Positions 3,441 to 6,645 of a stretch of DNA of 64,000 bases are shown here, piece by piece. The translations under genes were made by a program, and so were the position numbers. Source of the stretch: an uncultured Alphaproteobacteria bacterium. GTDB taxonomy: Bacteria > Pseudomonadota > Alphaproteobacteria > UBA8366 > JADFVY01. How positions within the stretch are numbered: the first letter of the stretch is position 1; every line of letters starts with the position of its first letter. The stretch is taken from positions 2,130 to 66,129 of the forward strand of contig CAMYNJ010000104.1 of NCBI GenBank assembly GCA_947259795.1. Direction: 5' to 3'. Below the pieces are notes generated by a model that saw only the letters and a program-made list of their open reading frames with translations, made no database searches and was not told the DNA's origin.

Positions 3441-3665
3441 TTACTCGGTCGCGTCTTTTTCCCGGTGCACCATCCGAATCCGGGGCCGGGGCTCCCGCTC
3501 GGCAAGGCTCTCGAGCTCGACGATGGCGGCGCCGATCAGATGCATGGCGATTTCCAGATTGCCGCGATCGGCATTGATATAGCCAGCAGCGATGTACAGC
3601 CGCTCGAGTTCTTCCTTGATGCTTTCTTCCGTGTAATCGTTTTCGCTTACAATAAACATTTTCAT
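3441..3665 (-). CDS. Small acidic hypothetical protein
   Basis: The ORF translation from MKMFIVSENDYTEESIKEELERLYIAAGYINADRGNLEIAMHLIGAAIVELESLA has coding-like composition. No family was recognised, and the longer start at 3779 is less likely. Confidence 0.4.
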   Translation of the reverse strand: MKMFIVSENDYTEESIKEELERLYIAAGYINADRGNLEIAMHLIGAAIVELESLAEREPRPRIRMVHREKDATE

Positions 3666-3941
3666 ATCCGCCCGCTTCCCGAACGCACCGTCATGTTCGG
3701 CTTCCTCCGGGTTTGGCGGTCCAATCAGTTCCAACCAATTCAGGAAATGATACAATACATGAGAAGGCGATGCACCCATTTTCTACTCAATTATGGGTGG
3801 TTGGTCCGGAACGGGCCTGCGAATGCATCGGAGTTCAGGCACCGGCTGAACGCAAACGCGTCCCCCATGCAGTCCGGCGCTGGCGGGGCAGTCAACGTCG
3901 GAATTCAGACCGCGCGCCGACTGCCCTGGATCACCCTAAAT

Positions 3942-4124
3942 TCACTGGGGACTCTCATCACCCCTGCCTGGCCGGTCCCTGCCCGGCGGCGAGTTTCTTT
4001 CATTGTCGCTATCGGCGCCGGCATTGCCGCTATCATGGGCGAACTGGTCGTCGATAACCGGCACGCCGAGCGTGCAACCCGCCGTGAACAGTGACACCAG
4101 TAAAATCGCGATAATTTGTTTCAT
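3942..4124 (-). CDS. Small lipoprotein (copy 1 of a tandem pair)
   Basis: MKQIIAILLVSLFTAGCTLGVPVIDDQFAHDSGNAGADSDNERNSPP carries a signal peptide plus the lipobox LFTAGC. It is a paralog of the 4496-4723 gene. Confidence 0.6.
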   Translation of the reverse strand: MKQIIAILLVSLFTAGCTLGVPVIDDQFAHDSGNAGADSDNERNSPPGRDRPGRGDESPQ

Positions 4125-4174
4125 AATTCGACTTCCCCATATTTCAGTGACGGTCGGCTGACCGACTGTCTGGG

Positions 4175-4180
4175 ATTATA
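4175..4180 (-). promoter_or_regulatory. Candidate -10 box (TATAAT) of lipoprotein copy 1
   Basis: The minus strand reads ...GAATTTTATGCAATTTAGCGTATAATCCC about 50 nt upstream of ATG 4124. The block is conserved in the second repeat copy. No good -35 element was seen. Confidence 0.35.
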
Positions 4181-4264
4181 CGCTAAATTGCATAAAATTC
4201 GCTGTGTATTTTCGCACATGTGCATGGATTTTTTCCGCCCCGTGACTTGAACGGATCGGGAGCG

Positions 4265-4372
4265 TCAGAGAGCGGGCTCCGCGACGCCGGCTTGCCGGCA
4301 AGCGGCGACTACGGTATTGCGCAACAATACGGCTATGGTCATCGGGCCGACGCCGTCGCGCACCGGCGGCCG
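4265..4372 (-). pseudogene. Displaced 3' fragment of folD (last ~35 codons, no 5' part)
   Basis: The minus-strand translation ...[34 protein letters not shown] aligns with the C-terminus of the intact FolD (..[33 protein letters not shown]), which lies 598 bp away. Confidence 0.75.
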
Positions 4373-4495
4373 TGTTTTTTCTGGCGCCGGCCGGACGTAA
4401 AAGCAGCCGCGGCGCAGTCGGGCGCCGCGGCTGCCGGAAGAGCTTGCGGCGCGCGGTTCAGACCGCTGCGCCGACTTCCCTGGACCGCTGTAAAA

Positions 4496-4723
4496 TCATT
4501 GAGCGACAGTTTCCCGCCCAAATCCCCCAGTGTCGCCTTCGCCTTCCTCCTGCTGCGGGCTCCTTTCTGGCCGCTCCCTTTCCGGCGGCGAGTTTCTGTC
4601 ATTGTCGCTATCGGCGCCGGCATTGCCGTTGTCTTGGGCGAACTGGTCGTCGATGATCGGCACGCCGAGCGTGCAACCCGCCACGAAAAATGACATCAAT
4701 AGAATCGCGATAACATGTTTCAT
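4496..4723 (-). CDS. Small lipoprotein (copy 2 of a tandem pair)
   Basis: MKHVIAILLMSFFVAGCTLGVPIIDDQFAQDNGNAGADSDNDRNSPP has a lipobox FVAGC and a longer acidic tail than copy 1. Confidence 0.6.
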   Translation of the reverse strand: MKHVIAILLMSFFVAGCTLGVPIIDDQFAQDNGNAGADSDNDRNSPPERERPERSPQQEEGEGDTGGFGRETVAQ

Positions 4724-4773
4724 AATTCAACTTCCCCGTAATTCAGTGACAGCCGTTTGTCCGGCTGCCCGGA

Positions 4774-4779
4774 ATTATA
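4774..4779 (-). promoter_or_regulatory. Candidate -10 box (TATAAT) of lipoprotein copy 2
   Basis: The minus strand reads GAATTTTATGCAATTTCGTGTATAATTCC, the conserved counterpart of the 4175-4180 element. Confidence 0.35.
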
Positions 4780-4862
4780 CACGAAATTGCATAAAATTCG
4801 TTGTGTATTTTCCCACATTTGCATGGATTTTCCCGCTCCGTGATCCCGACGGCGCGGCATCG

Positions 4863-5762
4863 TCAGAGATCGGGCTCCGCGATCCCCGCCTGGCGGCATG
4901 CGGCGACGACGGTGTTGCGCAGCAGCACCGCGATGGTCATCGGGCCGACGCCGCCGGGCACCGGCGTGATGGCGGCCGCGTTTTCGTGCGCGCCGGCGAA
5001 ATCCACGTCGCCCACCAGCTTCGGCTTGTCGCCGCCGGCGTCGATGCGGTTGATGCCGACGTCGATGACCGCGGCACCCGGTTTCACCCAGTCGCCCTTG
5101 ATCATTTCCGGGCGGCCGACGGCGGCGACCAGGATGTCGGCGCGGCGGCAGACATCGGCCAGGTCGCGGGTGCGCGAATGGGCGATCGTCACCGTGCAGT
5201 TGGCGCCCAGCAGAAGCTGCGCCATCGGCTTGCCGACGATGTTTGAGCGCCCCACGATCACCGCCGCCATGCCGGAAAGGTCGCCGAGCCGGTCCTGCAG
5301 CAGCATCAGGCAGCCCAGCGGCGTGCAGGGCACCATGGCCGCGCCGCCGGTGGCCAGCCGGCCCGCATTGATGACGTGGAAGCCGTCGACATCCTTGGCC
5401 GGGTCGATGGCGTCGATCACCGACTGTTCGTCGATCTGCTTCGGTAGGGGCAGCTGCACCAGGATGCCGTGGACCGCCGGGTCGTTGTTGAGCTTGTCGA
5501 TCAGGGCCAGGAGGTCGGCCTGCGCGGTTTCGGCCGGCAGCTTGTGCTCGAAGCTGTTCATGCCGGTCTCTTGTGTCTGCTTACCCTTGGAGCGCACATA
5601 GACCTGGCTGGCGGGATCCTCGCCGACCAGCACCACCGCCAGCCCCGGCGTCAGATCATGTTGCTGTTTCAGCCCGGCGACGATCTCGGCGATGCGGGCC
5701 CGCAAACCCGCCGCGAAGGCCTTGCCGTCAATGATTTTCGGATCGTTCGCCGTCCCGTTCAT
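4863..5762 (-). CDS. folD: Bifunctional methylenetetrahydrofolate dehydrogenase / methenyltetrahydrofolate cyclohydrolase
   Basis: The full-length FolD-like translation includes [55 protein letters not shown] and [11 protein letters not shown]. The start chosen is MNGTAND at 5762, which overlaps the DUF167 stop as ATGA. ATG at 5780 is an alternative. Confidence 0.95.
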
Positions 5763-6082
5763 TCGAAGCTCCTTCCCCATTCCTTCAGCATCCCGTGCAG
5801 CGCCGCGGGGTCGCCCGCGACATGCACGACCTTACGGCGCGACGTGGCGCCGGAGGCAACCGTAAGCGACGTTTTCGGCAGTTTCCACGTCTTCGCCAGC
5901 AGCTTCAGCAAGGCCGCGTTCGCCTTGCCGCCTTCCGGCGCGGCCGTCACGACCGCCTTGAGATGGACAGCCCCGCCGGCATCCCGCGAGGCGCCGCGAA
6001 TCGCGTTGGCCGATGATTTGGGCGTCAGGCGTACCGCCACCACCACGCCATCGGCGGTTTCGCTGAAGGGGGTCCCCGCCAT
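5759..6082 (-). CDS. DUF167 (YggU-like) family protein
   Basis: 107-aa protein with [10 protein letters not shown]....I.......[46 protein letters not shown], the typical DUF167 pattern. It sits downstream of yggT as in many genomes. Confidence 0.85.
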
Positions 6083-6092
6083 CGGGCCGGAT

Positions 6093-6386
6093 TTACGCGG
6101 CGAGCCTGACGTAAACCCAGATCACGGAATAACGGACGAAATAGAGCCCCACGATCAGAATGATCGGCGAAAAATCGATCTGCATTCTGGGCATGAACCG
6201 CCGAATGGGCTTGAGCGCGGGCTCGGTGATGCGGAACAGCACGTCATAGACCATATAGACGAACCGATTACGCAGGTTGATGACATCGAAGGTTACCAGC
6301 CAACTGAGGATTACCCCGGCGATGACGAACCAGACATAGATGTCGATGACCGTTATGATCAGCCAGATAATCGGATTTACGCCCAT
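6093..6386 (-). CDS. yggT: YggT family membrane protein
   Basis: 97 aa with two hydrophobic segments and FRITEPALKPIRRFMP, the conserved YggT core. Confidence 0.85.
   Translation of the reverse strand: MGVNPIIWLIITVIDIYVWFVIAGVILSWLVTFDVINLRNRFVYMVYDVLFRITEPALKPIRRFMPRMQIDFSPIILIVGLYFVRYSVIWVYVRLAA

Positions 6387-6569: not shown

Positions 6570-6645
<76 letters not shown>

Follow-up and report, generated by a model that had tools for sequence, protein, structure and literature searches.

Why would a displaced piece of a housekeeping gene differ from the working copy beside it almost only at synonymous positions? This question is raised by a locus in a 64,000-nucleotide (64-kb) stretch of contig CAMYNJ010000104.1 from an uncultured alphaproteobacterium (hereafter the window, meaning that whole stretch). 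A 3′ fragment of folD, which we call the orphan, lies there between two small lipoprotein genes that follow the intact, live folD. With a rough probability of 0.5, we favor the explanation that register-shifted homologous recombination, in which an old folD remnant paired with a working folD end, stacked two diverged alleles of a small cassette, and that the tail of the orphan was formerly part of a working gene.

The repeated unit behind folD

All genes in the folD region of the window lie on the minus strand. The repeated unit consists of a folD 3′ end, a promoter/leader and a small lipoprotein gene, and the window has two copies of it, unit B (adjacent to the live gene) and unit A, with 81–86% identity. 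Positions 3963-4232 and 4562-4831 are 86% identical at a spacing of 599 bp, and positions 4230-4368 and 4828-4966 are 81% identical at 598 bp. These alignments confirm the repeat spacing of 598–599 bp given in an earlier note that was made from the sequence alone. An additional matching block (3914-3947 versus 4468-4501) is shifted by a 45-nt indel in the lipoprotein C-terminus. We compared these units with their relatives, which are metagenome contigs (L081-L092) reached via lipoprotein and folD homologs. The array has the following features.

4863..5762, minus strand: live folD, intact, 299 amino acids (aa); Pfam THF_DHG_CYH (E 1e-43) and THF_DHG_CYH_C (E 3e-66).
4863..4966, minus strand: 3′ end of live folD, the repeat copy aligned with the orphan (sequence comparison).
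4724..4862, minus strand: promoter/leader of unit B with TATAAT box, hairpin (4750-4767) and Shine-Dalgarno-like GGGGAAG (alignment of 12 units).
4496..4723, minus strand: lipoB, predicted lipoprotein of 75 aa with a signal peptide ending in ...FVAGC (open reading frame (ORF); lipobox by eye).
4444-4482, minus strand: conserved downstream motif CCAGGG.AGTCGGCGC.GCGGTCTGAAC ahead of the terminator hairpin, kept in all relatives.
4403..4434, minus strand: intrinsic-terminator-like hairpin 3′ of lipoB, a 14-bp stem followed by UUUUAC (fold of -32.6 kcal/mol, z -4.6).
4367..4402, minus strand: 5′ part of the orphan, an apparently ancient, decayed folD remnant out of register with live folD (8-nt gap; alignment).
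4265..4366, minus strand: 3′ portion of the orphan, 34 codons counting the stop and free of indels; the last 30 codons read as a natural FolD C-terminus.
4125..4264, minus strand: promoter/leader of unit A, hairpin at 4151-4168; its sequence matches that of unit B at 79% and that of the second L085 unit at 87%.
3942..4124, minus strand: lipoA, paralogous lipoprotein of 60 aa with a shorter C-terminal tail (the 45-nt indel; ORF, alignment).
3800..3941, minus strand: downstream region of unit A, with the conserved motif and then a second, badly decayed folD remnant (sequence comparison).

Synonymous divergence of the orphan

We compared the orphan and the live gene codon by codon, anchored on their two TGA stops (4265-4267 and 4863-4865, minus strand). 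The last 30 codons have 12 synonymous and two non-synonymous differences (I/V and D/A), which is exactly the count reported previously. Within the adjoining four upstream codons there are two more non-synonymous differences (P>R and G>D, which alter the invariant PGGVGPMT motif), giving 12:4 over 34 codons. Upstream of these 34 codons the orphan and live folD have no alignable frame.

By the Nei-Gojobori method, the 33 sense codons have 12 differences at 28 synonymous sites and four at 71 non-synonymous sites, corresponding to a synonymous divergence (dS) of 0.62 and a non-synonymous divergence (dN) of 0.059 (dN/dS ~0.09). For the last 29 sense codons, dS is 0.78 and dN is 0.033. When the same 16 changes, in the same mutation classes, were placed randomly on the live sequence, a mean of 5.0 were synonymous, and 12 or more were rarely reached (P = 2e-5). 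Restricted to the last 30 codons, none of 100,000 trials gave 12 synonymous changes. We also polarized the changes by the live ends of the window, L083, L090 and L092. Thirteen are private to the orphan, 10 of them synonymous (P = 3e-4). The non-neutral pattern suspected from the simple count is therefore borne out both pairwise and on the orphan branch.

Given this synonymous skew, plain neutral decay of a local copy is rejected. A neutral fragment is expected to have a dN/dS of about 1 irrespective of codon position, and the orphan does not fit this expectation, with P weakening to 0.03 if a cluster of five adjacent changes, discussed below, is taken as one event.

The few amino acid differences also resemble those of working genes. 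The V of the orphan, which is the majority state, and its ...PAL ending are variants found in working FolD proteins of relatives, many of which end in ...EPAL or ...AEPAI (e.g. P0012, P0014, P0019, P0023, P0047 and P0049). Judged by these proteins, the last 30–34 codons of the orphan encode a FolD end within natural variation. The synonymous skew and these natural variants are best read as the earlier note proposed, with the two ends diverging while each belonged to a functional folD.

Gene conversion between the two copies was considered as a cause of the skew and rejected, on the reasoning that it would erase synonymous and non-synonymous differences alike. We found no second folD-like sequence, which could have been a conversion donor, elsewhere in the 64-kb window.

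Hybrid structure of the orphan

The orphan has two parts with different affinities. Over the first 38 aligned columns, its head matches the old L091 remnant at 76% identity and live folD at only 50%, by our count on the alignment. The same remnant head is also found after lipoA and in L087 and L092. From CCG GTG onward, the orphan runs for 102 nt without an indel and is 84% identical to the live folD end. The orphan is thus a hybrid, with a head from an old remnant and a tail from a working folD end. The earlier observation that homology decays upstream is correct, and the hybrid structure explains it: the upstream ~38 nt belong to the older remnant.

At the transition between head and tail, the orphan and the live copy share 21 identical nucleotides (CGGCGTCGGCCCGATGACCAT), which likely mark the crossover zone. 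The two damaging changes at this junction (P>R and G>D) would either belong to the decayed head or have arisen after the tail was orphaned.

At the other two-copy loci, L085 and L087, the remnant between the units has decayed and contains indels as well as non-synonymous changes. The clean state of the orphan in the window is therefore young and is not a conserved feature.

On the plus strand, positions 4352-4370 form a terminator-like hairpin with a T-run that is partly made by the same two changed codons. The scan that gave this site found six terminator-like sites where 2.2 were expected, and the site may be due to chance.

The locus in related genomes

The relatives share the neighborhood folD, lipoprotein gene, g74 (a small gene of about 74 codons), NnrU gene, NnrU gene. 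A check of lipoprotein copy number, as suggested in the earlier note, gave one copy in six lineages (L081, L082, L083/L084, L086, L091 and L092) and two copies in three (the window, L085 and L087).

The single-copy relatives have an old folD 3′ remnant after their lipoprotein gene wherever the contig extended far enough, i.e. in the six lineages: it is evident in L081, L083/L084, L086, L091 and L092, and weak in L082. The remnant heads share the form GC.TTTGCGTTCGGCCGGCGCC..., departing from live folD in the same way, and for this reason the bracket looks like the product of one ancient event. In the window, the second remnant (after lipoA) has the head GCGTTTGCGTTCAGCCGGTG at 3840-3859 and is of the same type as those in L092 and L085. 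Across these relatives, each unit is enclosed by two folD ends, the working 3′ end and, at the far border, an old displaced copy of roughly 47 terminal codons, and this bracket is ancient and clade-wide.

The two units of the window do not behave as sister copies. The units A and B, the unit of L083 and the second unit of L085 are mutually 84–89% identical, and A and B form the most distant pair (83.7%). By these identities, A and B resemble each other no more than they resemble units of other genomes. The idea of a one-off duplication of ~600 bp does not survive these comparisons, given the older remnant in single-copy relatives, the variable copy number and the distance between A and B.

The units vary even between near neighbors. 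By their flanks, L090 and L092 are the closest relatives (yggT dS 0.09), and their promoter allele (L090 5889-6031 and L092 328-470) is only 55–60% identical to those of units A and B. The cassette promoter thus appears to be hypervariable among near-identical backgrounds.

No close genome was found among species representatives, where the best folD match has 80% aa identity and belongs to a Kiloniellales metagenome-assembled genome (MAG) that does not have the cassette. At this distance, the species representatives give no verdict on which folD end is native. A metagenome scan with the lipoprotein alignment added one distant locus. There are many folD relatives, roughly 40, at 86–96% aa identity, and P0012, P0014-P0016, P0018-P0020, P0023, P0033, P0036 and P0047-P0049 are among those with an ...EPAL ending.

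Three side observations concern these contigs and proteins. In sample ERZ23498799, the L090 contig ends (at 6175) inside a lipoprotein gene and the L085 contig starts inside one; such breaks are the usual behavior of assemblers at a tandem repeat. L092 comes from a sister sample and resembles either a one-copy recombinant or a collapsed version. Finally, P0049 (295 aa) is a FolD relative whose first ~125 residues are strongly diverged and whose remainder is near-identical to the family, which makes it a mosaic FolD and suggests recombination breakpoints inside folD in this group.

A recombination model for the array

These results can be joined in a simple model. The locus behind folD would be a small, recombination-prone cassette locus, and one unit would comprise a promoter, a leader hairpin, a gene for a lipoprotein of ~60–75 aa and a terminator. 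The brackets of a unit are direct repeats, which would allow the old remnant on one DNA molecule to align with the working folD end on a second molecule. A crossover at the paired brackets would then stack a second unit and leave a hybrid remnant between the two. We infer this crossover from the hybrid form of the orphan. The locus has pre-existing direct repeats, a hybrid repeat at the joint and a variable copy number, all of which are features of repeat-mediated unequal crossing-over.

In the window, the partners would have been diverged alleles from related lineages. Such partners would explain both the nearly synonymous-only divergence of the orphan and its natural FolD C-terminus, a conclusion that we draw from the dN/dS pattern, the comparison of alleles and the natural variants. 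The synonymous character of the divergence, together with the lack of any special similarity between A and B relative to alleles of other genomes, argues that the partners were diverged alleles, and hence that DNA from a related lineage was involved.

The model needs no integrase, because the old remnant supplies homology for unequal recombination. Previously, the mechanism was left open since no integrase is present. The absence of an integrase stands, and the mechanism is less open now that a substrate for register-shifted recombination can be named.

If the model is correct, the orphan is a dated fossil: its synonymous-only divergence would show that the end of a housekeeping gene travelled with a neighboring surface-lipoprotein cassette between lineages. 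A leftover gene end could likewise serve as a homology handle for the stacking and loss of cassettes, and gene-end remnants with low dN/dS would mark recent allele exchange rather than hidden function. General principles are unchanged by the finding. The event is of a known kind, an instructive but ordinary case of locus shuffling.

Age of the cassette block and possible direction of transfer

We searched for the imported side of the array using sliding identity and per-gene dS versus L090, L091 and L092. The live folD has 93–96% aa identity to metagenomic relatives and a GC content at third codon positions (GC3) of 0.90. Its 3′ end (148 nt to the stop, window 4863-5010) is 95% identical to that of L083 and 89–93% identical to those of other relatives. 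This live end shows flank-level similarity to the closest relatives, and the orphan together with unit A forms a more diverged block. For example, identity to L092 is 85% in the orphan, 57% in the promoter, 79–89% in the downstream region and 91–99% in g74 and nnrU. On the other side, folD has a dS of 0.22 versus L090 and yggT a dS of 0.09. The cassette block is accordingly deeper, i.e. older, than both flanks, and folD-adjacent variation in these uncultured alphaproteobacteria would be older than the surrounding genome.

As a separate observation, folD dS is equal (0.22–0.25) for the close L090 and the distant L091, whose yggT dS values are 0.09 and 0.53. The cause would be saturation, given the strong codon bias (GC3 0.90), or else gene flow at folD.

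Two directions of transfer are conceivable: unit B may have displaced the resident folD end, or unit A may have arrived with its own passenger end. The flank-level similarity of the live end leans toward the latter. The earlier suggestion of a foreign replacement therefore holds in part. Recombination with DNA from a related lineage is the best mechanism, and the supposed displacement of the resident end fits less well with the similarity of the live end to its relatives.

Several results weigh against recombination between diverged alleles. Five of the synonymous changes fall in five consecutive codons (ATA GCC GTA TTG TTG), and if these are taken as one event, five of the remaining eight changes are synonymous (P = 0.03). 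The orphan has a dS of 0.54–0.76 to every sampled live end, versus 0.17 to L092 in the flanks. A model in which the orphan is the native end of this lineage under-predicts its dS, with a P that we roughly estimate from a Poisson distribution at about 0.01–0.07. Seven of the synonymous states of the orphan are codons nearly absent from the live folD of eight relatives, in which we counted ATA 0/97, GTA 2/165, TTG 6/122, CAA 4/44 and GCT 2/198, and the rare states occur in no sampled live folD at these positions. GC3 is 0.79 in the orphan versus 0.94 for the same codons in the live copy. The identical stretch available for a crossover is only 21 nt. Finally, all relatives are metagenome contigs, some under 1 kb, and the window itself may come from a metagenome assembly.

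The right flank of the array shows an AT-ward synonymous drift specific to the window, with nine GC>AT changes and no AT>GC change versus two in L092, and the left flank does not show it. The drift resembles that of the orphan and in this respect speaks for the recombination model. This drift and the depth of the cassette block soften the objection from rare codons and distance, and do not remove it.

Alternative explanations

The alternative that best survives is that the duplication arose in situ, when sister chromosomes of a single lineage crossed over unequally, and that the tandem copies then diverged in the ordinary way, with the skew due to chance, assisted by AT-biased mutation of a GC3-rich sequence and by one clustered multi-nucleotide event. 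We consider it unlikely. Its amount of change is plausible: the orphan branch has changed at 13 of 102 sites, about as the non-coding divergence between the units predicts, and by our tally the rates of G/C>A/T change at third positions (~4/31) and at first and second positions (~3/43) are not significantly different. The new codons of the orphan are unpreferred and AT-ending, as under relaxed selection, and without the five-codon cluster P is 0.03. A duplication within one lineage is harder to reconcile with the kind of change, namely 10 synonymous among 13 private changes (P = 3e-4; pairwise P = 2e-5) and remaining amino acid changes that are natural variants. Nor are A and B each other's closest relatives, and comparable remnants (L085 and L087) picked up indels and non-synonymous changes as they decayed.

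Also quite unlikely is an assembly chimera, in which B-type and A-type strains were joined via a short k-mer shared by the old remnant and the working folD end. The orphan would then be the live gene end of the other strain, which would explain purely synonymous divergence perfectly, and a chimera of this kind would imitate the whole pattern. The relatives are available only as metagenome contigs, the assembly of one sample breaks in the lipoprotein gene (at the end of L090 and the start of L085), and the left and right flanks differ in drift pattern. However, a shared stretch of 21 nt is short for modern assembly k-mer sizes, and in single-copy relatives the old remnants have decayed so far that they would have no k-mer in common with a live end. 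Moreover, a chimera of live alleles would not give the independent two-copy arrays of L085 and L087, with their decayed inter-unit remnants.

A more general version of the exchange would make the last ~30–47 folD codons a dedicated docking site for tiny cassettes of promoter, gene and terminator, each passing between lineages along with a replacement folD end of its own. We regard this as improbable. If it were true, the docking site would represent gene-end-anchored cassette exchange in which the cassette has no recombinase of its own, as seen in the stacked lipoprotein cassettes and in L054, an unrelated Hyphomicrobiales MAG. In L054, a gene for a 486-aa ATPase has been independently inserted and is bracketed by a duplicated folD end: folD (27-905) is followed by the ATPase-like ORF (1046-2506) and a remnant (about 2570-2663). 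The duplicate covers the last ~31 folD codons, lies 1.67 kb downstream of folD and starts at the same PGGVGP motif as in the window.

L054 also bears on a very unlikely alternative, in which the promoter, lipoprotein gene and terminator form a tiny mobile cassette that is site-specific for the folD 3′ end, carries a replacement gene end and is moved by a recombinase acting in trans. Direct repeats of the gene end do bracket each unit, and the alleles, which are older than the flanks, vary even among very close relatives (in L090 and L092 the promoter is only 55–60% identical to A and B). Against such a cassette, neither an integrase nor any other ORF fits into a 600-bp unit. The only credible gene in each 0.6-kb unit, by position and homology, is the lipoprotein gene, in whose product Pfam finds nothing, and the other listed ORFs overlap that gene or the remnant. 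The window has the 21-nt identical stretch, short exact cores like those of attachment (att) sites do not seem to be shared across insertions, and the bracket lengths differ (about 47 codons in the old remnant, 34 in the clean part and 31 in L054). Anything similar was found in only one of 79 outgroup genomes (L054), and homologous recombination suffices.

A translated orphan whose peptide is under selection, made either through read-through of the lipoB TGA or from an internal GTG or ATG start, is highly improbable: relaxed codon usage with conserved amino acids is the pattern of a weakly expressed coding sequence, and the lipoB TGA and the orphan stop lie in one frame, 231 nt apart with no stop between them across 76 codons (window 4265-4498, minus strand), but an open frame of this length has a chance of roughly 4% at 65% GC by our estimate, a terminator hairpin (-32.6 kcal/mol) followed by UUUU separates lipoB from the orphan, no Shine-Dalgarno sequence is visible by eye ahead of the GTG or ATG, the invariant PGGVGPMT motif is broken, and among relatives the remnant is either out of frame (L086) or decayed (L085 and L087). 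Read-through, which would add 76 residues ending in the FolD tail, was rejected as the main explanation, given the strong terminator in between and an arrangement that is not conserved.

Comparison with known systems

When a repeat pairs with an alternative copy during transformation, unequal crossing-over yields tandem duplications, or merodiploids (Johnston et al. 2013, PMC3784515). Recombination between diverged folD alleles, as proposed for the window, would share with this process the pre-existing direct repeats, the register-shifted pairing, the hybrid repeat at the joint and the lack of a dedicated recombinase. It differs in that the repeat is a gene-end remnant of ~100–140 nt rather than a copy of an insertion sequence, the unit is 0.6 kb rather than 100–900 kb, and the partners are diverged alleles. 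The process in the window is also proposed from sequence data.

In the lpl lipoprotein cluster of Staphylococcus aureus, the 3′ end of a gene forms a single evolutionary unit with the intergenic region and the gene that follows (PMC2568036). Both loci have tandem lipoprotein genes, a variable copy number and recombination in a conserved segment. By contrast, this segment is the folD end and its remnant in the window and the central region of the paralogs in lpl. The window lipoproteins are unrelated to Lpl and match no Pfam family at E <= 0.01.

The arrangement of the gene ends has another parallel. Genomic islands and integrative elements insert into the 3′ end of a tRNA or protein gene, bring a replacement end and leave the displaced end as a direct repeat. 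As in such islands, the insert in the window is flanked by a working gene end and, opposite it, by a displaced, orphan end. Unlike them, the window has no integrase and no evident exact att core, and the insert is a single gene for 60–75 aa.

Homology-facilitated illegitimate recombination, which combines one homologous anchor with one illegitimate joint, could have made the first, ancient bracket. In that case, foreign DNA anchored in folD could have been joined upstream of the resident gene end. The later stacking in the window differs in having homology on both sides.

Lipoproteins and leader

Homologs of lipoB are rare: there are seven among 5.8 billion proteins, i.e. six besides that of the window itself, and none has a Pfam domain. 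Searches of the window lipoproteins against Pfam at E <= 0.01 found no family. The lipoboxes MKHVIAILLMSFFVAGC and MKQIIAILLVSLFTAGC were read by eye, and their cysteine is invariant in nine homologs. The lipoA gene is on a long synonymous branch, with a dS of 0.23–0.43 to other alleles versus 0.07–0.14 among those alleles.

A 7-bp hairpin lies between TATAAT and GGGGAAG in both leaders (4750-4767 and 4151-4168, minus strand) and in the same place in L081-L092. Across 10 units, 88.6% of cells are paired and six of the seven pairs have changes on both sides, whereas pairing is only 6–54% in a control in which the partner was slid by 1–3 columns. The unit B leader has a fold of -17.4 kcal/mol (z -4.3), and the hairpin of unit A keeps its pairing via compensatory changes relative to unit B. 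A hairpin kept in both units fits two functional alleles rather than one decaying copy, as judged from this covariation. An Rfam search of the leader gave nothing at the gathering score. A scan with the sigma-70 consensus found no promoter in the leader, where a conserved TATAAT is visible by eye.

Flanking genes

The array is flanked by the following genes.

6093-6386 (6386-6093 in the direction of transcription), minus strand: yggT; the next gene downstream is the DUF167 gene.
5759-6082 (6082-5759 in the direction of transcription), minus strand: DUF167 gene, between yggT and folD.
3441..3662, minus strand: g74, a 73-aa gene (ORF MFIVSENDY..., no Pfam family), whose copies in relatives are called as 74 aa.

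The g74 gene forms the right border of the array in all relatives and has a dS of 0.17 to L092. Two NnrU genes lie beyond it. On the other side, a tRNA-Ala(CGC) gene is present just past yggT (6570-6645, plus strand), and synteny with L090 extends no further, with an amidase gene at this location in L090.

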